From the NCBI GenBank assembly GCA_963789265.1, contig CAWBKB010000006.1, positions 401,393 through 465,392 on the forward strand: DNA of 64,000 nucleotides. The letters are read 5' to 3'. Numbering within the stretch: the stretch's first letter is position 1; every line of letters begins with the position of its first letter. The notes below the pieces were generated by a model. It made no database searches, was not told the origin of the DNA, and saw only the letters and a list, made by a program, of their open reading frames with translations. Source of the stretch: an uncultured delta proteobacterium. Its GTDB lineage: Bacteria > Desulfobacterota > Desulfomonilia > Desulfomonilales > Desulfomonilaceae. Position numbers and translations under genes: made by a program. Positions 49,316 to 61,312 of the stretch are shown here, piece after piece.

Positions 49316-50539
49316 TTACATCTGCTCGGCAACTGCGTACATTTTTCCGTCATTGGAGCCGAAGTATACAATCCCGCTGGCCACCGCAGGAGACGATGAC
49401 ACCGGGCCTCCTGTCTCGAAACTCCACCGAAGGTCGCCGGTTTCGGCTTTCAAAGAATAAAGGTGATGGTCGGAACTGCCAAAATAGACGGCCCCATGAG
49501 AAAACGCGGGAGAAGAGAATATCGAGTCTCGTGTCCTGAATCTCCATAGTTCTCTACCTGTACTGGTTTCCAGAGCGTAAAGCTGTCCGTCAGCGCTCCC
49601 GAAATATACTGACGTGCCAGCCACCACAGGGGAGGAATATACGGCATTTCCCGTTTTGAAGCGCCATCGCTCTTGCCGTGTCCCTATGTCGACCGCATAA
49701 AGGTTGGAATCGTTGCTTCCGAATAGGACCAGTCCATTGGACACAATGGGAGATGAATCAACGGAATCTCCGGCGGTGAACCTCCAAATCTCCTGACCGG
49801 TTTGGGAATCTACAACGTAAATGTCTCCTCCGTGGGTTCCGAAAAAGACGACACCATCTGCCACGGTTGGCGCAGACTCAACCCAATTGAACGCCAGACC
49901 CTGGCTCTTGAATTTCCACTTCAGCCGCCCCTGGAGCGCGTCAACTGCGTACAGAATTCCATCCGTGCTCCCGATATACACTGTCCCCTCGGAAATTACC
50001 GGCGAAGCCCAGACCTCCTGGCCGGTCTTGAATCTCCAAATTTCTTTGCCGGTCTCCGTGTTGACGGCATAGAGGTGGTGATCCCAACTCCCCACGTAAA
50101 CCTTTCTGTCCCACACAACAGGAGACGATCTAATCGCGTCGGGCGTCCAGAAAATCCACTTGGAACGGCCGGTTCTCAGGTCTAAGCAGTAAAGGTTCCC
50201 GTCCCAACTGCCGAAATAGACTGCTGTACCCCACAACGCAGGTGAAGAGAACACCCATCCGCCGGTTTTAAAGGCCCATTTGAGTCTGCTACGGACAGGA
50301 CCATCCGCGATTTCAAGAGGAAATTGGTCAATCAGAAGTTCCACGGTCGTTTCAAGCGTACTAAGCCGCCGGTCTATTTCCTCTTGATCGACGATCTCTG
50401 CTTCCAGCAGCTTCTTGTAAAGACTAATGAGGCCATTGGGAGAAAGTCTGTACTTTAGCATCATGTCGGAGTCACTCAAGCCCGATCTTATGTCTTCGGC
50501 AGCCTTCTCCGCACTGATTTTCAATTTGCGTTTATTCAC
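49316..50539 (-). CDS. PQQ-like beta-propeller repeat protein
   Basis: Eight repeats of W.F.T...V.SSP.V....VYFGS.D..LYA. Confidence 0.9.
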   Translation of the reverse strand: MNKRKLKISAEKAAEDIRSGLSDSDMMLKYRLSPNGLISLYKKLLEAEIVDQEEIDRRLSTLETTVELLIDQFPLEIADGPVRSRLKWAFKTGGWVFSSPALWGTAVYFGSWDGNLYCLDLRTGRSKWIFWTPDAIRSSPVVWDRKVYVGSWDHHLYAVNTETGKEIWRFKTGQEVWASPVISEGTVYIGSTDGILYAVDALQGRLKWKFKSQGLAFNWVESAPTVADGVVFFGTHGGDIYVVDSQTGQEIWRFTAGDSVDSSPIVSNGLVLFGSNDSNLYAVDIGTRQERWRFKTGNAVYSSPVVAGTSVYFGSADGQLYALETSTGRELWRFRTRDSIFSSPAFSHGAVYFGSSDHHLYSLKAETGDLRWSFETGGPVSSSPAVASGIVYFGSNDGKMYAVAEQM

Positions 50540-50777
50540 CAGCCTTCACCTTCCTGGTAGCCACTCTTTACCATAATAGCTTCTACTAGGCCGGAACGGG
50601 AGACCGTGTAAGTGTTCCCGGACACATTTCAAAAGGATAATATATGAGATCTCGTCATACTAGTAAAGAAACTCGTGCGGACGTCAGTCCGCCAACGTAG
50701 CAGTCGAAACTGAGTATACCTCGTGATGCTGCGGGTCAATTCATTCTTTACAAATCGTAAAAAATCTTGACAATTAA

Positions 50778-50986
50778 GAAACTGTCTCAAAACTATTTTG
50801 ATGACCAGAATCGTGCCACGATTCAGGCTCATTCGTATAGTCGTCGCCCTCACCCCAACCCTCTCCCAGGGGGAGAGGGAGCAGAGCCAGGGCCGTTTTG
50901 CACTTCCCTCGCCCTCTGGGAGAGCAACACAGGGTGAGGGATTCGTGCTACGATTCCGACCGCTTCATTGTTTTTGAGACAGTTTC
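50778..50986 (+). mobile_element. MITE family A, copy 3
   Basis: TIRs GAAACTGTCTCAAAA/TTTTGAGACAGTTTC; duplication TTAA. Confidence 0.88.
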
Positions 50987-51131
50987 TTAATGAGCAGTTT
51001 CAGTGGGAGCGGCGTCGGGATGATCGGATAAACGTCGGAACGGACCGATGCAGTGGCTCCGTGGTATCATGCGGTCATGGCACAGGTCTTGCTCCTCTCT
51101 AATTCAGTTCGGTATCGGGAGGTGATTGAAA

Positions 51132-51851
51132 ATGAGAGACCAGAGAATACTCGTAAACCCTTTTCGCATGATCAGCCCCAAACTTGATTCCGAGGCTCTT
51201 CGGTTGGAAGAGCTTTACGAGCGGCCTTTCTCCGAAAGCGTCACTCTGCAAAAAGGCTTGCTGATAATGATCAGTAAGATCATCGAGATGACTCGCTTAC
51301 TCTCAAAGTGCCTTGTCAGTGGATCTCAGAAACAAATGGACGCTTGCGAGGCCCTGGCAAGAGGCGTTCATGAACAGGAAAAGGCGCTGACAAGGAACCT
51401 GATATCCTCCGAGATGAAGACAGCGAGACTCAGCGACATTATCCGCTTCCCGTTTCGCTTGGAAAGAATTGGGGACCTGCTGGAAAATATCCTGAAGTGC
51501 TGTCGAATCAAGACCGGAGACGGAGTCCCTTTCGGTGACAAGGCCCATGCCGAACTCAATCAAATGCTCTCGCTCCTGGCAGAGATGCTGGTAAACCTGC
51601 GTGATGCCTTCGTGACCACCAACACGGTCCTGGTGGATCACATTTTGGCGGATGGGAAGAAGCTCAGCCAGGTCATTTTCGATGCTCGACTGGCCCACTG
51701 GGTTCGCCTGGAGCGTGGATTCTGCGCACCGCAAGCTTCGTCTCTTTACCTGGATATTCTAGACTCTGTGACAGCCATTAACGAATACGTAGCCAAGATG
51801 TGCGATCGCCTGGTGGTCCTCGCTGAAGCGGAGGAAGACGAGCTCGCGTAG
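51132..51851 (+). CDS. PhoU-domain protein
   Basis: RLERIGDLLENI, HWVRL..G.C.PQASSLYLDILD (PhoU-like repeats as in Na/Pi cotransporters). Confidence 0.75.
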   Translation: MRDQRILVNPFRMISPKLDSEALRLEELYERPFSESVTLQKGLLIMISKIIEMTRLLSKCLVSGSQKQMDACEALARGVHEQEKALTRNLISSEMKTARLSDIIRFPFRLERIGDLLENILKCCRIKTGDGVPFGDKAHAELNQMLSLLAEMLVNLRDAFVTTNTVLVDHILADGKKLSQVIFDARLAHWVRLERGFCAPQASSLYLDILDSVTAINEYVAKMCDRLVVLAEAEEDELA

Positions 51852-51866
51852 CGACTGTGTTGATTG

Positions 51867-53090
<1,224 letters not shown>

Positions 53091-53256
53091 AGAAACATAC
53101 AAGGGTGTGGTCACCCTCGGCAAGTTCACCTCATGCTGAGCAGCAGTTAGTTCTTTATCGTCCCTCTCGGGGAATGGCAGAAAAACCCTTGCCTTCACGC
53201 GAAGACTTCAGTACGTACAACCGGGTACTGGCGCGGTACAAGATGCAAAGATGCCG

Positions 53257-53365
53257 GTAGGATGCTGGTGAGTCCTGCGGCACGCTGGACGAACCGCATC
53301 GTTCGCGGTTTTTTCTCGATTGATGCGGTTCTCCCGCGCAGAACGTGGGCTCACCAGCATCCTAC
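53257..53365. repeat. GTAG-type REP doublet (REPIN)
   Basis: gtaggatgctggtgag...aaccgcatc / gatgcggtt...ctcaccagcatcctac. Confidence 0.8.
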
Positions 53366-53388
53366 GCTTAAACCGTCTCCGGTTCTCT

Positions 53389-53468
53389 GGCGGCAGGTAC
53401 CCCGGGATTCATCCGGTGGAGCGAAAATGCCGCCGAAGCCACCGCCTTCAGGCGGGTGGAGCCTTCAC
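53389..53468 (+). repeat. IS200/IS605-end-like hairpin pair
   Basis: ggcggca...tgccgcc followed by gaagccaccgccttcaggcgggtggagccttcac; no tnpA or tnpB nearby. Confidence 0.5.
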
Positions 53469-53552
53469 TATCCAGCTCTTTGCCCTAATGTTACTGTTCT
53501 CAGCCTGCCGCTAACTCTCCATTTTCAGGATCAACTATTATCATAAGAATGA

Positions 53553-54044
53553 TTATGATATTGGGATCTGCCGCATGGTTTCGACGGCTAGTTGACTCCT
53601 GACTAACCCCTCTTGCCTCCCGTCTTCAGTTACGTCCTCCAGAACACCGTGAATTATCCGGCTATCCTCGGCGGCCATTTGGATTGCCAAATCAACAAGC
53701 GACAAAATCCCTACCACTTGATTGGCATCGTCTGTAACCAGGAGCCGGTGAATCTTGTGAATCGAAAGGAGTTCCGCGGCCATTTCAAGGCTGTCGTTCA
53801 TTCTGCAAGCAATCGGTGTTCCTGACATGATTTCCTCAATTTGTGTCAGGTTGAGATTCCTGTTTTCCGCGACAGCACGGATGACTACGTCTCTGTCCGT
53901 AAGCAAAGCCACAATTGCTCCGCCAGACATCACAGCAAGCACTCCCACGTCAAATTCCTTCATTTTCTTGGCTGCTTCTTCGATCGTCGAACGGGAGTCG
54001 ACAACCAGGACCGTTGGGTTCATAACATTAGCTACGCTTTTCAT
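53553..54044 (-). CDS. CBS domain protein
   Basis: AAKKMKEFDVGVL..LTDRDVVIR; HKIHRLLV..VVGILSLVDL. Confidence 0.88.
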   Translation of the reverse strand: MKSVANVMNPTVLVVDSRSTIEEAAKKMKEFDVGVLAVMSGGAIVALLTDRDVVIRAVAENRNLNLTQIEEIMSGTPIACRMNDSLEMAAELLSIHKIHRLLVTDDANQVVGILSLVDLAIQMAAEDSRIIHGVLEDVTEDGRQEGLVRSQLAVETMRQIPIS

Positions 54045-54141
54045 ATCAATTTCCTCCGTCTAGCAATTATCGTTACATAGCCACATTTCGTATTGATTCG
54101 CGCAATTGTGTGTAGCCGAAATCAGGCGCTTTCGTACGTTT

Positions 54142-54363
54142 TCACAATTCTGTGGAGGAAGACGACTCACCGCCATCTAAACCCTTAGTTCGGCATATTC
54201 CCTTTAAAATCGGATCCTTCACGTTATTGCAATCCAGCGGTGGTGGACCTTGCGCCTTACACAGAGTTCGTTTTACAGGGTCCTGAATTCTCTCGCAATC
54301 ATGTTCGCGAGGTCGTCGCGACGTAGGCATCTCTTCGGAATCGATTATCCGATTCTTGTTCAT
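54142..54363 (-). CDS. small protein with two DCxxxxDPxxxxxC repeats
   Basis: DCERIQDPVKRTLC and DCNNVKDPILKGIC; GGAG RBS. Confidence 0.55.
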   Translation of the reverse strand: MNKNRIIDSEEMPTSRRPREHDCERIQDPVKRTLCKAQGPPPLDCNNVKDPILKGICRTKGLDGGESSSSTEL

Positions 54364-54438
54364 GGCCACAATCTCCAATTTGTATCTATTATTGCAGATG
54401 CGACCACGCTCCCAAGGATTCAAATCTATTTTCCGTGT

Positions 54439-55083
54439 CTAATAGCCAAGATTTTCACCTACCAACTTCACGTGAATACGGTCTTTCACCATGTGCCCTT
54501 CAATGATACTCCACATATTGCAAAGACGTTGAGGAGATCTGCAATCGACGCACAATCCCTTATCTTTGCAGGGATTCTTGAACCCCAGGCGCATGGTGTT
54601 TACAGGCGCGGCATAATGTTTCACTCTGGCCATTGCCGAATCCAAGTCAGGAGCTACTTTGTTCATACCGACGACGAGGATCACCTTTTTTGGCCCAAAG
54701 CACATAGCTGCGACCCGATTCCCCGTGGCGTCCAGATTCACCAATTTTCCATCCAACGTGATGGCATTGGAACTTGCTATCATGAAATCGGCCGACATGC
54801 CCCTTCGTCGCGCCTCGTAAGACTCTTCAGGCGACATCCCCGACAGATACGGGTTAATTACCTGCACTCCGGGAAGCTCGGCTATCTTCTCCCACAGACC
54901 TAATCCGACCGTTGTCATTGAACCGCAACGATAAACGCCGGCCCCGTGCGGAATCATCGCGACGATCTCATCTGCGGCTTGAGCGCCGGTAGAAGCGTAG
55001 CTGCCCTCCATCCGGCGCTTCTCCAGATGATGAATTATTTCCTTGGCGACCGCTTCGTTCCAGCCCTTCTGATGGTCGTCCAT
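54439..55083 (-). CDS. LUD-domain (lactate utilization protein C/YkgG-like) protein
   Basis: SSNAITLDGKLVNLDATGNRVAA, VGMNK and a C-terminal Cys cluster. Confidence 0.85.
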   Translation of the reverse strand: MDDHQKGWNEAVAKEIIHHLEKRRMEGSYASTGAQAADEIVAMIPHGAGVYRCGSMTTVGLGLWEKIAELPGVQVINPYLSGMSPEESYEARRRGMSADFMIASSNAITLDGKLVNLDATGNRVAAMCFGPKKVILVVGMNKVAPDLDSAMARVKHYAAPVNTMRLGFKNPCKDKGLCVDCRSPQRLCNMWSIIEGHMVKDRIHVKLVGENLGY

Positions 55084-55125
55084 ATACTGTCTCCTTTCAA
55101 AATATTAAAGGTTCCACAATGGGCC

Positions 55126-56121
55126 TTAGATGGGTTCCCTACTCATCAGCCGGAGCATTTCGGCAGGCAATCGGGCATTTTTGGAAAGAAATATATTAGT
55201 GTAATCCTTCCACAATTCAGTAGTTGTCAGACATTCATCGACTATAGTCTCAAAATCCTCAATGCTGTTTATCCGTTTCAGGTACTTTTGATGTTGGTCT
55301 ATTTCCGCAATCAAGTCCGGTTTCAGATCAAAAAGATGTCTTGCGAATATCAACGGGTCATGGCCTGAAGTTTTCAGTGCCTCCGGATGAAACTCGAAGA
55401 ATATTTGATATCCGTGAGCAGATTCGAGTGTGGTCTTCATCCCCCGGAAAGCTAACGGTTCACTGCCTTCTACGTCAATTTTGATCACAAAATTGTTGGC
55501 CGGTGCTATATCTATTTCGGACAACAAACCATCGATGCTTATGCAACGCACCTTGTAAGACGAACCGGACCGTGCAGAAAGGGAAGAGTCGGCCTGGCTC
55601 CTCAGGCTCTTGCTCATCGCTGAATATCGCTCATCCACGTGAAAAACACATTCATCATTGTGATTGTCCGAAACTGCCGCATTCACAAGTTGGGCGAATC
55701 CACCGAAACCGCTGAATTCAACGGATCGTTGTAGGCAGGAAAACGTTTCTCTGTTTGGTTCGATAGCGATGACACGTTTGACTTGACCGTTCTTCGCAAG
55801 GTTGCAGGCGGAAAGCGTATATTCGCCGTAATTCGCTCCCATATCAATTACGACCGGGTTTTCATTCACTGAGATAGCTTCGGCAAACAAATTCAACTCG
55901 TAGGATTCCCAGATCCAATCGTCCGAGTTCACGTGTATGAGAAAAAGCTCGGTGGCCGTTTTGTCTCGGGGATTCAAGAACACCCTGTAATCCTTGATTT
56001 GTATGCTGTTTCCTTTGGACGCCATGAACCAGGTAATCAGCGGAGATCCGAACCTGTCCCTGAACTTCCACGGAATGAGTTTGGGATAAAGTGACAGAAT
56101 GATGTCGAGTAAACGGGACAT
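55126..56121 (-). CDS. FkbM family methyltransferase
   Basis: Motifs IDMGANYG, AIEPN and IKIDVEGSE. Confidence 0.88.
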   Translation of the reverse strand: MSRLLDIILSLYPKLIPWKFRDRFGSPLITWFMASKGNSIQIKDYRVFLNPRDKTATELFLIHVNSDDWIWESYELNLFAEAISVNENPVVIDMGANYGEYTLSACNLAKNGQVKRVIAIEPNRETFSCLQRSVEFSGFGGFAQLVNAAVSDNHNDECVFHVDERYSAMSKSLRSQADSSLSARSGSSYKVRCISIDGLLSEIDIAPANNFVIKIDVEGSEPLAFRGMKTTLESAHGYQIFFEFHPEALKTSGHDPLIFARHLFDLKPDLIAEIDQHQKYLKRINSIEDFETIVDECLTTTELWKDYTNIFLSKNARLPAEMLRLMSREPI

Positions 56122-56359
56122 ACGCGAAGTTTCAACCTCATTTACTGTTGGGTGCAATCTATGGGACAATACCTGAAAGCTCGGAAGATTTACAAGATCT
56201 CTGTGAAGCACGCAGCTCGGACCTCGGAAAAGCTTTTGGGCTCGGGTTGCAGTCTTGTAAGTCTGCCGGAAGGCTGCACAATAGGATTGAAGGAAAAGCG
56301 ACTTTGTGGCACTATCATAATATAAAAGAATTGGTAAGTCGGTCCGGAGGGATACCGCA

Positions 56360-56674
56360 ATGAAAGACGGCAACAGTGTTTTCTATAGCCTGATCCCTTT
56401 GATACTCATTATACTATTTTCTTGGCTCTTCGGTGCGCTTGGCTCCAAGCTTAAGAAGCCGCCGGAAGAGGGAGGCATTGCCTCGAAACGAGAATCTGAG
56501 GATCAACCTATGGACATATTTGGAGAAATGATCCAACAAGTCAGCCAAAGATACGCCGGGGGCAACGAAAGCCAAGCGCCGCCCTCTGGAGCCCCTACAA
56601 TAAAGATTCGAAAGGACCTAACTGGGCCGACAGTTACGCCTAAACCAATCACACCCAAATGGTGGGGCGCATGA
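56360..56674 (+). CDS. hypothetical protein with an N-terminal TM segment
   Basis: GGAGG RBS; its stop overlaps the next start (ATGA). Confidence 0.65.
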   Translation: MKDGNSVFYSLIPLILIILFSWLFGALGSKLKKPPEEGGIASKRESEDQPMDIFGEMIQQVSQRYAGGNESQAPPSGAPTIKIRKDLTGPTVTPKPITPKWWGA

Positions 56675-57211
56675 TTCAAGCACTGTCTGGGCACGAGAGC
56701 AACCGGGGCACTGCCCGGACCGGGAGTCTGGTCCCTCTGATATTGGCCGTTTGTTTCATTCTCTTGGGCGCACAAATCTCCTCGGCGAAACAAGCCCGGG
56801 GCAAAGATGTAGCCGGCAAGAAGCATGGAGGAGAACTCTCGTGGGAAATGCCGGGCAGGGTGTCAATCTACGACTTGCAACTCGGTCCGGCGGCCCTAAA
56901 AGATAACCACTGGCAATTTACGGGAAACAATCGCACGCTGAATGCCGGCCTTTATGGGGAGCGTCTTACCTTGATGGTCCGATTCTCCTACAGTGGATCC
57001 GGATCAGAGGTACCTCTGAAATTCGTCATAAGGCTACCCGGGGCCAGACCGTACGAGGAAACCGTACATCTGACCAGTAATATGGGTACTTACAATTATC
57101 ATTTCACTATTCACCGGCCCGAAGATTTCGTCGGGAGCGGTTCGGTCTATCTTTATTACGGCTTTAGTATGGTAGACGTTCTCCGATTTCACCATCGTCC
57201 CCGGCACCTGA
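56671..57211 (+). CDS. exported hypothetical protein, probable +1 frameshift at about 57184
   Basis: Signal-like segment; removing one C gives the terminus DVLDFTIVPGT*. Confidence 0.55.
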
Positions 57212-57307
57212 GTCCTGGAATTTTCCCCACGGAACTGCTCCAGGGGTCTGTCCTAGTATTGACTCTGAAGACTTGAGGGACTAAGGGTGTGAAAAGAGGG
57301 ATAAACC

Positions 57308-57538
57308 ATGGTTCATACGTCAACGACGCGAGAAGAGATCCAACGGCAAATTGACAGCCTTCCGGACGAAAAACTCTCCGCTGTGAAGGATATTCTAGAG
57401 CTTATAGGCGGTGATCTCCTAACATCCGGCAGTCTGGAGGTTTGGGAGTGCGCACTTATGTCAAGCTCGGCTCTCGGCAAGAAACTTAACACTCCTGAGG
57501 AGGACGATGCGTGGAGGGATTTCAACGAGGGGATGTAG
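57308..57538 (+). CDS. antitoxin (DUF2281-like)
   Basis: IDSLPDEKL...LMSSSAL...TPEEDDAW; overlaps a MazF-type toxin. Confidence 0.72.
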   Translation: MVHTSTTREEIQRQIDSLPDEKLSAVKDILELIGGDLLTSGSLEVWECALMSSSALGKKLNTPEEDDAWRDFNEGM

Positions 57539-57852
57539 TTTTTGCCCGGTTCATCTTCACAGATGTGAGTCAAACCAAGAATCGCCCAGCCGTGGTCATC
57601 GCTGCTTTGCCCGAAGATGACTTCATCCATTGTCCCATTACGAGCCGGGGTCGTCAGAACGATCCCTTTCAAATAGAGCTAAAGCGAGATGAAATTTTGG
57701 GTAAGCATCTTCCCCGCGATAGTTTCATCAGACCTAATCTCTTGATGACGGTGCATCGAAGCCTAATCCTCTGGAAACAAGGGGCCTTGCCTCCAGAAAA
57801 GCTCAAACTTGTCTCAGAAGTGATAGTGCGAATCATAACGGATTCCAAGTAG
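57511..57852 (+). CDS. PemK/MazF family toxin
   Basis: Motifs RGDVV..F.FTD...KNRPAVVI, CPITS and SFIRP. Confidence 0.85.
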   Translation: MEGFQRGDVVFARFIFTDVSQTKNRPAVVIAALPEDDFIHCPITSRGRQNDPFQIELKRDEILGKHLPRDSFIRPNLLMTVHRSLILWKQGALPPEKLKLVSEVIVRIITDSK

Positions 57853-57865
57853 CGATCGCACCGTC

Positions 57866-58636
57866 ATGCCGGAAAAACCCACAAAAAAGCGGCTGGACAT
57901 ACTGATGGTCGAGAAAGGTCTTGCTCCATCCCGCGAGCAGGCCAGAAGTCTCATCATGGCAGGCCGAGTCTTGGTTGAAGGCATTGGCGTCGAAAAGCCG
58001 GGCAAAGAAGTCTCTGCCGCAGCAGAAATCTTGGTAAAGGAATACATGCCCTACGTAAGTCGGGGCGGACTCAAACTGGAAGCCGCTCTCGACGGGTTCC
58101 AAGTAGATCCTGAAGCGCTTAGCCTTCTGGATGCGGGAGCCTCGACAGGGGGTTTTACGCACTGTTTGCTCAAACGGGGCGCCGGACGGGTAATCGCTAT
58201 AGATGTGGGTTACGGTCAATTTGACTGGCAACTGCGAAACAACCCTCGTGTCACCTTGATTGAACGCACCAATATCAGGTTCCTGGACCCCAACTCTCTC
58301 CCATATCCTGTGGATGCGGCCGTGGCGGATCTCTCGTTTATTTCGCTGACGCTGGTCCTCCCCAAGTTTGCCGAGATCCTCCCCCTGGACGGATGGCTGA
58401 TTCCGCTGGTTAAGCCTCAATTTGAGGTAGGACGGGCTGACGTGGGGAAGGGTGGGGTGGTTCGAGACGAGGAAAAAATCAAGGATGCTGTAGAGAAAGT
58501 GAAAAGATACGCTGAACGATGCGCATTCGAGGTATTGGGAGAACTGGAGAGCCCGTTGAGGGGACCAAAGGGAAACAGGGAGTTTTTCTTGCATCTCAAG
58601 AAAACCGACCGGCTTAAAGAGCAATGTCGATCATGA
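57866..58636 (+). CDS. tlyA: TlyA family rRNA 2'-O-methyltransferase
   Basis: Motifs YVSRGGLKL, DAGASTGGFT, DLSFISL, LVKPQFE and GNREF. Confidence 0.95.
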   Translation: MPEKPTKKRLDILMVEKGLAPSREQARSLIMAGRVLVEGIGVEKPGKEVSAAAEILVKEYMPYVSRGGLKLEAALDGFQVDPEALSLLDAGASTGGFTHCLLKRGAGRVIAIDVGYGQFDWQLRNNPRVTLIERTNIRFLDPNSLPYPVDAAVADLSFISLTLVLPKFAEILPLDGWLIPLVKPQFEVGRADVGKGGVVRDEEKIKDAVEKVKRYAERCAFEVLGELESPLRGPKGNREFFLHLKKTDRLKEQCRS

Positions 58637-58747
58637 GTCAATCTCTGTTCGGACTGTGAATTGAAAATGTGGAGCCCATCAGCTAAAATCCACTTTTCTT
58701 GATGCTTCAAGAGCTGGTCGGCAGACACATAAGGGAAGGTGAAACGG

Positions 58748-59992
58748 ATGTCATTTCCGGATGTTGAAGTCCAGATGAGCAAGATTCTGAGGGGCGTGGA
58801 AGAAATCATCCATGAGGAAGAGATGCGAGAGCGCATCAAACGAAGCCTGAAAAGCGGGAAACCGCTTCGTGTAAAACTGGGGGTCGATCCTACCGCCGCA
58901 GATATACACCTGGGTCACATGGTAACCATACGCAAATTGAAACACTTCCAGGAGTTGGGGCACACTGCCATCTTTCTTGTGGGCGATTTCACGGCTCGTA
59001 TCGGCGACCCCACCGAGCGCAGCGAATCCAGAGTTAGACTAACCAAGGAGCAAGTCTGGGACCACGCCAAGACCTTCAAACAACAGGTCTTTAAGATCCT
59101 TGATGAACAAAAGACAGAGCTTCGCAGCAACGGCGAATGGTTTGACGCCATGTCGTTCGCAGACTGTCTTGATCTGGCATACCGATCCACTGTAGCACGC
59201 ATGTTGGAACGAAATGACTTCGAGAAGCGCTACCGTGAAGGGAATCCCATCAGCATCACGGAGTTCCTCTACCCTCTTATGCAAGGATACGACTCGGTTG
59301 CATTGCGATGCGACGTCGAGGTGGGAGGGACGGACCAGAAGTTCAACCTCCTAGCCGGAAGAGATATGCAGATTCAGCACGGCCAACCTCCGCAAATCGT
59401 TATGATGACGCCGCTGATCGAAGGATTGGACGGCTCCAAAAAAATGAGCAAAACAGAACGCAATTACATCGCGGTAGATGACTCGCCCGAAGACATGTTC
59501 GGGAAAACAATGTCCATTCAGGACCACCTTGTCGTCAAGTACTTTACGCTCCTGACCGATGTGGATCAGGCCGAAGTGAAGCGCTACGACCAGGCACTTG
59601 AGGAAGTCGAGACACATCAGGACCTTTGCGATCCGTTTCATCCCATGCAAATAAAGAAGGCCTTGGCCGGGGCTATAGTCACCGAGTACCATGATGCCGC
59701 AGCCGCGGCCAAAGCTCGGGAACACTTTGAAAAAGTGGTGCAACGGAAGGAGACCCCTGACGAAATTCCACTCAGGCCCTTCAAGGAACAAACTATCGCG
59801 GCATACGAACTCGTAGTCAATTTGATGTCGGTTTCAGGTTCTGAAGCCCGGAGATTGGTCAGGCAGGGCGCCGTCAAGATCGACGGAATCAAGATTTCCG
59901 ATCTCGCTCAGCAAATCGCACTCGGGCCTGGTGAGCAACTGGTACAAGTTGGCAAGCGCAATTTCTACAGGGTTAAGTGGGAGGATGAATAA
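58748..59992 (+). CDS. tyrS: tyrosine--tRNA ligase
   Basis: GVDPTAADIHLGH, YPLMQGYDS, GGTDQKFN, KMSK and an S4 domain. Confidence 0.97.
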   Translation: MSFPDVEVQMSKILRGVEEIIHEEEMRERIKRSLKSGKPLRVKLGVDPTAADIHLGHMVTIRKLKHFQELGHTAIFLVGDFTARIGDPTERSESRVRLTKEQVWDHAKTFKQQVFKILDEQKTELRSNGEWFDAMSFADCLDLAYRSTVARMLERNDFEKRYREGNPISITEFLYPLMQGYDSVALRCDVEVGGTDQKFNLLAGRDMQIQHGQPPQIVMMTPLIEGLDGSKKMSKTERNYIAVDDSPEDMFGKTMSIQDHLVVKYFTLLTDVDQAEVKRYDQALEEVETHQDLCDPFHPMQIKKALAGAIVTEYHDAAAAAKAREHFEKVVQRKETPDEIPLRPFKEQTIAAYELVVNLMSVSGSEARRLVRQGAVKIDGIKISDLAQQIALGPGEQLVQVGKRNFYRVKWEDE

Positions 59993-60163
59993 TACCAGTG
60001 CGCCGGCAAACAAGTAACAATCTTATACAAGACATGGTAGGACAGTTCCGCCCAGGAGGGATTGTCTGTCGTCATGCCCGCGTACGCTAATGTAGGGGCG
60101 AACGGCATTCGCCTTGGGCGGTCCCGCGCCCCGCGAATTCGCGTTAAGTTAAGCAGCAATTTC

Positions 60164-60260
60164 GTAGGATGTGCTGAGCGAAGCGCATCGATTGTGTTAG
60201 ACGAAGCGCTGACGCGGCCGATGCGCTTTCCCTGCCTTGGCAGGGTTCAGCACATTCTAC
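60164..60260. repeat. GTAG-type REP doublet (REPIN)
   Basis: gtaggatgtgctga...agcgcatcg / cgatgcgct...tcagcacattctac. Confidence 0.78.
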
Positions 60261-60280
60261 ATGCTGAACAGCAGTTTTTA

Positions 60281-60430
60281 TAGCCGTTGCCAAAAGTAAT
60301 GACCTGTTCACCACCCGTCACCCCGGCGAAGGCCGGGGTCCAGAACATATTGAAAAGACTGGATTCCGGCCTCCGCCGGAATGACGGTGTCAGGCTACCT
60401 CTAATCGGACAAAACTTTTGGCAATGGGTA
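60281..60430 (+). mobile_element. MITE family B (TA-flanked), copy 2
   Basis: TAGCCGTTGCCAAAAG...CTTTTGGCAATGGGTA with TA on both sides. Confidence 0.82.
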
Positions 60431-60844
60431 TATTACGCATCGCGCTTATCTTAACGCAAATGCGCGGAACGCGGGGCAGGCAGTCCCGCGCGGAACGCGG
60501 GAATCTGCCTGAATCAGTGGCCTTATTCCACTTTAACAGTGAGGCATGGCTAGTGAACGGGAAAGGTGGAGTTCAGAAGCGGGTCGAACAAAAAAACGAA
60601 GCCGGTACTTGACAAATTGAAAAAAAAGAATGACAAATCTTCCGGCTGGACGGTCAAAAAGATTGCTCGATGTAACATGAATCGACCGGCTTAAACACCG
60701 TGTGACGTGGGAGAACCCATGACCGCGGCCGAGACTTGGGCTTCGAAATTAGAAGGCCGCTTTCGATCGGACGGAGAGATCTAACAAGCCTGATCGTCTT
60801 CGTGAAGATCTTTTTTCTGAGGGACAATTTGGAGAGGGGTTGCA

Positions 60845-61312
60845 GTGGCTGAAAAGGATCGGAAGAGCAGGAAGAGCAAGAGTTTAAGGGTGGTAACTGA
60901 TTCGAGCGTGCCGTGGTGGCCGGATCCGAAGGACATAGACGGCTGGCTCGATCCTGACTCACCGTCGGAGTTGGAGTCTGAAGAGGCGTTCTTTGAGCCG
61001 AGCATTGCCGCGCGTTCGCTGGAAGCGGGGGTTCCGGGTATCGGTGAACGTCTTGAACGGATCAAGGAAAGCCACGCTCTTCTGAGGCAGTTTACATCCA
61101 AAGAATTAAAAACGCTCCTGAATCTCAAGAGAAACACTTCGCCCAAGGCATGGAGTTTGAGAGAAGACCTAGTCGTATTGACCCTTCCGGCCAGCAACCG
61201 TGAAATTGCGGATCTTTTGTCGGACAGGAACAAGGAGGCCGTGAAGAAGCGATTGCAGCTATTGCGGTCGAAGGGGCTTGTGAAGAGGCTGCCTGAACCT
61301 CAAATGCCCTGA
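60845..61312 (+). CDS. hypothetical protein with a C-terminal HTH-like segment
   Basis: SNREIADLLSDRNKEAVKKRLQLLRSKGLV; GAGG RBS. Confidence 0.65.
   Translation: MAEKDRKSRKSKSLRVVTDSSVPWWPDPKDIDGWLDPDSPSELESEEAFFEPSIAARSLEAGVPGIGERLERIKESHALLRQFTSKELKTLLNLKRNTSPKAWSLREDLVVLTLPASNREIADLLSDRNKEAVKKRLQLLRSKGLVKRLPEPQMP

Follow-up and report, generated by a model that had tools for sequence, protein, structure and literature searches.

Guides of an IS110-family insertion sequence in an uncultured bacterium point to the heads of a host REP family as its probable targets

How does an insertion sequence choose its place in a host genome, and can the sites open to it be read from its own DNA? These questions are raised by a stretch of 64,000 nucleotides (the window; C6:401393-465392) from a genome of 6.06 Mb in 9 contigs, 95.6% complete (G000), which carries an IS110-family element and, some 7 kb away from it, a short sequence at 60163 that resembles the target spelled out by the guides of the element. 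The original prediction, made from the letters of the window, held that the element is programmed against multicopy REPs with a GTAG head and uses them as safe harbours, as IS621 does in Escherichia coli, but in a different REP family. The analysis described here makes it very probable that this is a bridge-RNA-guided IS110-family element aimed at the heads of host REPs, with 60163-60173 being one near-cognate site. In the explanation proposed, a 5' non-coding RNA would fold into two internal loops, of which the donor loop would pair with the joined ends of the element, ACAGTCG-CT-TGTATG, and the target loop with both strands of a 14-15 bp site, TCGCGT-AG-GATGTG(R). The target site would be the head of a host REP family of about 92 members, so that dozens of near-cognate extragenic landing sites would lie open to the element, and a sigma-70-type promoter, TTGACA-17-TATGTT, would form only once its ends are joined.

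The ends of the element were set by comparison with a second full copy (copy B, C1:2327380-2328633), which differs from the window copy by 6 substitutions and 1 indel (99.4% identity). The sequence common to both runs from CGACTGTG... to ...CATACAAG, and the element in the window therefore spans 51852-53103, or 1252 bp (Table 1). None of the differences between the two copies falls within the guides, which are identical, and both copies have intact 323-codon frames, one residue apart. In both, the core AG (CT on the element strand) is present at both junctions. The recombinase combines an N-terminal DEDD_Tnp_IS110 domain (PF01548, 6.1e-22) with a C-terminal Transposase_20 domain (PF02371, 4.1e-20); it aligns with the IS621 transposase 8wt6 over residues 5-307 of 313 (E 4e-34), and its best match among solved structures is the ISCro4 transposase (PDB 9t56; E 1.7e-35, residues 4-307). 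A search for the recombinase in the contigs of other genomes gave 17 further loci in other phyla, with proteins 39-53% identical.

Apart from its two full copies, the element is found in G000 only as one remnant, at C1:2416348-2416432, which retains the last 79 bases of the element at 100% identity. On its far side follow the terminal bases of the element in inverted orientation together with a CTACGCG flank, forming an 18-nt terminal inverted repeat. In the left flank of the remnant, AAGCTCGCGTAG, the right target guide finds a match at 8/8 positions; upstream lies a signal-peptide-like frame of 41 codons that bears no relation to the PhoU-domain gene bordering the window copy. These inverted ends prompted the thought that the right end of the element might itself be part of a REP doublet, which was rejected as that sequence is not carried on in the right flanks of either full copy. 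The genome also holds a second IS110-type family (C1:1414398, C7:107074 and C4:990; about 1.53 kb, 99% alike, with a 360-aa frame), inserted in a different palindromic repeat, GGGGTCAAGTCTGCTCTTGACTCAT...ATATGAGTCAAGAGCAGACTTGACCCC.

Table 1. Positions in the window of the insertion sequence, its predicted guides and promoter boxes, and the neighbouring REP doublets
Feature	Position	Strand	Remarks
Core dinucleotide AG (CT on element strand)	51850..51851	.	right-target junction
IS110-family insertion sequence	51852..53103	-	1252 bp, counting the core CT of the element (53102-53103)
TTGACA, predicted -35 box in right end	51865..51870	-	
Recombinase gene	51867..52808	-	313 aa from TTG, inside a 323-codon open frame
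Putative bridge-RNA region (5' non-coding, target loop and donor loop)	52809..53103	-	295 nt
Predicted right donor guide region CAUCCGCAAGG	52823..52833	-	CAAG complementary to left-end CTTG; limits approximate
Predicted left donor guide ACAGUCGCC	52854..52862	-	matches right-end ACAGTCG and core
Predicted right target guide UCGCGUAG	52899..52906	-	pairs with CTACGCGA on element strand, plus-strand TCGCGTAG
Predicted left target guide UCACAUCCU	52923..52931	-	pairs with plus-strand AGGATGTGA under the published pairing rule
TATGTT, predicted -10 box in left end	53094..53099	-	
Left-target flank GGTGTGG of occupied site	53104..53110	+	
REP doublet, GTAGGATGCT subfamily	53257..53365	.	arms 53257-53275 and 53347-53365
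Unoccupied candidate target CGTAGGATGTG	60163..60173	+	predicted exchange at AG 60166-60167
REP doublet (REPIN)	60164..60260	.	plus-strand head is the candidate target; minus-strand partner head GTAGAATGTG

The non-coding part of the element contains, on the minus strand, a target loop that reads ...GATCG-UCACAUCCU-hairpin-UCGCGUAG-CUGGAUCG.... When the published pairing rule is applied to its two guides, the target comes out as CACATC-CT-ACGCGA on the element strand and hence as TCGCGT-AG-GATGTG on the plus strand, which is letter for letter the target that had been decoded originally. The right target guide is complementary to the flank of the window copy at 8/8 positions and the left target guide at 7/9 by Watson-Crick pairing; in the remaining two a U stands opposite a G, which may represent an rU:dG wobble rather than a plain mismatch. 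The second loop addresses the element itself: its left donor guide matches the donor ACAGTCG-CT at 8/9 positions, and it also carries ...CAAGG, matching the CTTG of the left end. When the two ends of the element were joined by script, the boxes came to lie as TTGACA-17 bp-TATGTT, and it is only in this joined form that the two halves of the promoter meet. An Rfam scan of positions 50000-61000 with E up to 1 matched no bridge-RNA family, and three weak microRNA-like matches in the same range fell on repeats and were set aside as chance.

The decoding of the guides could be followed further in relatives of the element. Of 60 related genomes searched at the DNA level, 12 contain relatives with about 65% identity, and the loci read comprise three copies each from G033, G006 and G031 (5-6 matches apiece) and three loci from G004. 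The relatives have kept the ends CT-TGTAT... and ...ACAG(T/A)CG-CT as well as the loop scaffold, GATCG-[9]-hairpin-[8]-CTGGATCG being common to all five lineages, G000 included. Both target guides vary among the lineages, and each pair matches the flanks of its own lineage: left guide UUCGUCCCU and right guide CCCGGCAG go with the flanks GGCGTCC-CT-GCCGGG in G033, UCCGGUCCU and GCUGGUAG with GCCGGTC-CT-AC in G006, AUUGGCACU and UCCAGCAG with GG.GGCA-CT-GCTGGC in G031, and UUCGCCCCU and UCCCGAAG with GTCGCCC-CT-TCGGGG in G004. The donor side covaries as well in G004, where the right end reads ACAGACG (T-to-A) and the donor guide ACAGACGCU. A CT is found at both junctions in the nine copies from G033, G006 and G031 that are so readable, and the RNAalifold consensus of the five lineages comprises a target loop and a donor loop; of its 59 pairs, 18 show compensatory change. 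Because the guides covary with the flanks, and given the five-sequence fold, the decoding is no chance resemblance. At one locus of G004 (L008:1502-4040) two related copies stand in tandem, 11 bases apart, with TCGGGGCACCC between the end of the first and the core of the second; the second copy has a deletion in the region of the right target guide and looks decayed.

What, then, do the guides address in the host? A GTAG head is a feature of REPs, and a search for the strict pattern GTAGGATG[TC]G followed by ...CGCATC gave 44 seeds, from which a profile was built and searched with nhmmer (E up to 0.01). It finds 92 matches, covering 3741 of the 6.06 million bases of the genome. The head reads GTAGGATG in 71/92, the variants being GTAGGATGTG (39), GTAGGATGCT (19), GTAGGATGCG (10) and several rarer ones, and the arms of each repeat pair into a short imperfect palindrome. 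By a crude proxy that relies on stop-to-stop frames and not on gene calls, 75/92 are extragenic and 17/92 have their midpoints in frames of at least 150 codons, which cover 82% of the genome. Moreover, 60/92 form 30 convergent (inverted) pairs less than 150 bp apart. The GTAGGATG repeats thus show the features of REPs arranged as REPINs, which the published definition describes as REPs in inverted doublets. The doublet at 53257, headed by GTAGGATG and already pointed out in the original prediction, is one of the two in Table 1; at a distance of 154 bp from the occupied site, it is a poor match to the guides, with 4 to 5 mismatches by eye.

Six Y1_Tnp matches are found in G000, and two RAYT-like Y1 genes (L004, C7:408822-409439, and L005, C3:99509-100036) are flanked by other REP families beginning with GTAGGAC..., namely GTAGGACAGGCTTCCAGCCTGTC and CCGGCAAGATGCCGGTCCTAC, the second of which is present as three copies in tandem and is the family hit by the relatives of the element in the sister genome G006. 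Among the six matches in this 95.6% complete genome no RAYT gene directly flanked by GTAGGATG REPs was found; the nearest REP of that family lies about 0.7-1 kb from one of the RAYT-like genes. The window holds further repeats of the host. At least 4 host repeat families make up a mosaic in the intergenic region 59993-60840, behind a tyrosyl-tRNA synthetase-like ORF; among them are GTCGTCATGCCCGCGTACGC with about 86 copies and CGCGGAACGCGGGA with about 60 copies in the genome, and the depth of metagenome contigs peaks there. At 50780-50990 a MITE-like unit consists of inverted copies of AAGAAACTGTCTCAAAA around a GC-rich palindrome containing CCCTCTCCCAG...GGGAGAGGG; a 14-mer of AAGAAACTGTCTCAAAA occurs about 98 times in the genome, and this region is deep in all three metagenome runs.

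The sites that the element already occupies tell a mixed story. The empty site rebuilt for copy B is scored as a REP with 33.2 bits; it reads CCCGT-AG-GATGTGG, agreeing with the guide-encoded target at 12/14 positions, and its head is CGTAGGATGTG. In the window the arrangement is GCTCGCGTAG-IS-GGTGTGG, that is CGTAGGGTGTG, so that TCGCGT-AG-GGTGTG agrees with the guide-encoded target at 13/14 positions. This second site had been said to look like a REP head, and the likeness itself stands: the first 25 bases agree with the REP head at 20/25, 14 of these compared bases being the guide match itself, and of 3000 non-REP GTAG sites drawn at random, 1 did as well. Membership in the family does not follow, as the REP-family profile does not recognise the rebuilt site, and GTAGGGTGTG occurs within REP matches in 0 of its 7 sites genome-wide. 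We read the site as either a decayed REP or a near-cognate site outside the REPs. The profile likewise recognises no REP around the remnant C1:2416348-2416432, which leaves one of the three insertion events in G000, that of copy B, in a profile-recognised REP.

The window copy adjoins a PhoU-domain ORF (51126-51851), the last two bases of whose TAG stop are the core AG at 51850-51851; the stop survives the insertion because the core AG is duplicated. Orthologues of the gene are present in 4/6 same-genus genomes at 76-78% identity, with unrelated DNA downstream, and the pre-insertion site is therefore unreadable from relatives. The gene ends at 51840-51851 in ...EEDELA*, and in ...EEE* or otherwise in the four orthologues of the same genus, and a likeness to the 5' extension of a REP subfamily is seen in its final codons, GAGCTCGCGTAG. 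The original end of the gene seems to have given way to a repeat.

The three insertion events by themselves are too small a sample to show a preference, and one might argue that the rare sequence TCGCGTAGGRTGTG is the cognate target in any setting, such as the ends of genes, its likeness to the REP head being incidental and the REPs no habitual landing site. The window copy and the remnant would fit such a reading, both matching the right target guide at 8/8 positions and neither lying in a profile-recognised REP, and TCGCGTAG by itself is mostly a non-REP sequence, with 3 of its 111 copies inside REPs and 108/111 outside. The complete target behaves differently. Within the genome, the motif CGTAGGRTGTG, the count of which had been called for at the outset as CGTAGG(A/G)TGTG, occurs 15 times against 6.3 expected from base composition, and GTAGGATGTG 40 times against 11.5; 39/40 sites of GTAGGATGTG and 12/13 of CGTAGGATGTG lie within REPs. 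The exact guide-encoded 14-mer has a single occurrence, at C7:417922, inside a REP. With the core fixed, 10 sites lie within one mismatch of the 14-mer, and 7/10 of them, the exact one included, are in REPs, which make up so small a part of the genome; among 200 permuted guides with unchanged composition such sites averaged 1.35 and numbered 7 at most, so that none reached 10. At up to two mismatches the count rises to 44, with 23 in REPs, a weak excess given that 12/200 controls reach 44. The parts of the target fall into place on the repeat as well: the REP stem opens with GATGTG, the GTAG head has the exchanged AG as its second half, and TCGCGT agrees with the consensus of the 5' flank in one REP subfamily, for example CAGCTCGCGTAGGATGCGGTGAACC.

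Further evidence comes from the relatives, and it bears on the same alternative. All three G006 copies examined are inserted into another GTAG REP, whose head is the G006 target GATGCCGGTCCTAC, and in each the cut falls at the same CT-AC; together with copy B they go against the outcome that was to refute the original prediction, a lack of enrichment of other copies in GTAG REPs. Exact targets left unoccupied number 48 in G006, 7 in G033 and 157 in G031, against 1, 0 and 1 for the respective controls read backward, while in G004, a genome 76% complete, 0 unoccupied matches to the exact target motif were found. The relatives in G006, G033 and G031 thus all aim at multicopy palindromes. Considering these along with the REP of copy B, the REP-like head of the window copy and the concentration of the best guide matches in REPs, it is very unlikely that the REPs are incidental, and the programming of the guides against REP heads remains the preferred reading.

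The sequence at 60163 can now be placed among these sites. It is where the original prediction had put it, on the plus strand at the head of an inverted-repeat pair (60164-60177 with 60247-60260, 93% complementary), and it is an unoccupied candidate target in a multicopy REP family with GTAG heads. With its flanks it reads TTTCGT-AG-GATGTG-C, agreeing with the guide-encoded target at 12/14 positions. The left target guide would pair at 8/9 positions, the exception being a U-C mismatch at its far end in place of the U-G of the two full copies (A, that of the window, and B); pairing of the right target guide would run unbroken for 5 bases outward from the core, as at the occupied site of copy B. 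The predicted pairing is like that of copy B, and 60163 should therefore be about as good as a site already used. It is, at the same time, one of 13 equal CGTAGGATGTG 11-mer sites and not the best, which is C7:417922.

Would pairing alone suffice at such a site? Recognition of the REP hairpin by the protein might instead be the main determinant, or act as a second gate. A 2026 preprint on ISPpu10, which describes REPs as long recognised targets of IS110 elements, reports the target stem-loop as an added determinant of specificity, and the left-target bases of the REPs studied here are one arm of the REP stem. It nevertheless seems doubtful that guide pairing is secondary or insufficient, considering that the guides covary with the flanks across five lineages and that the window copy sits in a place with no recognisable intact hairpin; the 60163 site has its hairpin in any case.

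Whether the element still moves is a separate matter. Two full copies and one remnant are few against some 40 candidate sites, and in the integrated element the halves of the promoter stand at opposite ends, as would be expected of a quiescent or dead resident, for which 60163 would have no present-day meaning. Three soil metagenome runs of one study, with a sampled-word content of 0.48, 0.21 and about 0, bear on this point. Short contigs from these runs bridge both junctions of the window copy in run X1, and neither an empty site nor a joint at 60166 is seen among them, but such contigs cannot show absence; likewise no polymorphism was seen in the metagenome contigs, which could not have shown any. 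In run X3 a contig is about 94% identical to the bridge-RNA region at window positions 52871-53013, and among the differences listed (for example 52918 and 52921) none falls in the target guides, although 18 more exist. It hints at a diverged relative that may have the same target programme. This contig, and the open 323-codon frames, identical guides and 99.4% identity of the two full copies, speak against a dead element, which is unlikely on balance. In the reading preferred here the bridge RNA is presumably made, recombination would follow the mechanism of IS621 with rU:dG wobble tolerated, and REP targeting may serve as a safe harbour.

The comparison of lineages invites a broader, and tentative, suggestion. 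In G000 and G006 the two target guides come together at the AG of the GTAG head, in G033 and G004 within a hairpin loop, and in G031 in a stem arm. It is possible that this IS110 lineage has kept its donor ends and RNA scaffold while its target guides were repeatedly rewritten to follow the private REPs of each host, and that REP doublets act as shared landing pads or baits for several classes of mobile DNA, including the second IS110-type family. Irrespective of this, the locus offers a well-resolved case of natural bridge-RNA target programming outside the Proteobacteria, where such programming has been described. The five related elements, with one donor and scaffold and five guide pairs, each matched to a host repeat, constitute a natural series that should be useful for studying the reprogramming of guides, the length of the right target guide, and the role of U-G wobble and of the target hairpin.

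It remains to compare the element with the known systems; it leaves the picture of IS110 elements using REPs as landing sites unchanged. Insertion of IS621 into REPs was shown experimentally (Tobes and Pareja, 2006), and all copies of ISPa11, ISPpu9, ISPpu10 and ISRm19 were described at one REP position, with 7/7 for ISPpu10, 7/7 for ISPpu9 and 6/6 for ISPa11 (Tobes and Pareja, 2006). REP targeting by IS621, ISPpu9, ISPpu10 and ISPa11 has long been known, and the present element therefore extends a known habit. The target of IS621 is given as ATCAGGC-CT-AC, read by a left guide of nine bases and a right guide of four, the latter being extended in some orthologues, and its natural promoter is described with the -35 box in the right end (Durrant et al., 2024). 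The present element shares with IS621 of Escherichia coli a homologous recombinase, the CT core, REP targets and a -35 box in the right end, as well as the geometry of the target, for ATCAGGC-CT-AC also ends in CTAC, the complement of the GTAG head. It differs in its guide sequences and in the REP family, so that the IS621-like targeting of a REP family other than that of E. coli was rightly foreseen, the sequence being different and the geometry the same; its right target guide appears to be 8 nt long against the extendable 4 nt of IS621, and it is known from sequence alone. With the ISCro4 transposase (PDB 9t56) the likeness, drawn from the protein alone, extends to the aligned GIDV, EAT, KTDxxDA and SG motifs. 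The likeness to ISPpu10, ISPpu9 and ISPa11 of Pseudomonas lies in the insertion habit: these too are IS110-family elements with REP targets, and the REP doublets found here recall the targets of ISPpu10, which according to the 2026 preprint are often convergent pairs, with the left target within the stem-loop. Unlike those elements, the present one has only 1/3 of its insertion events in a clear REP.
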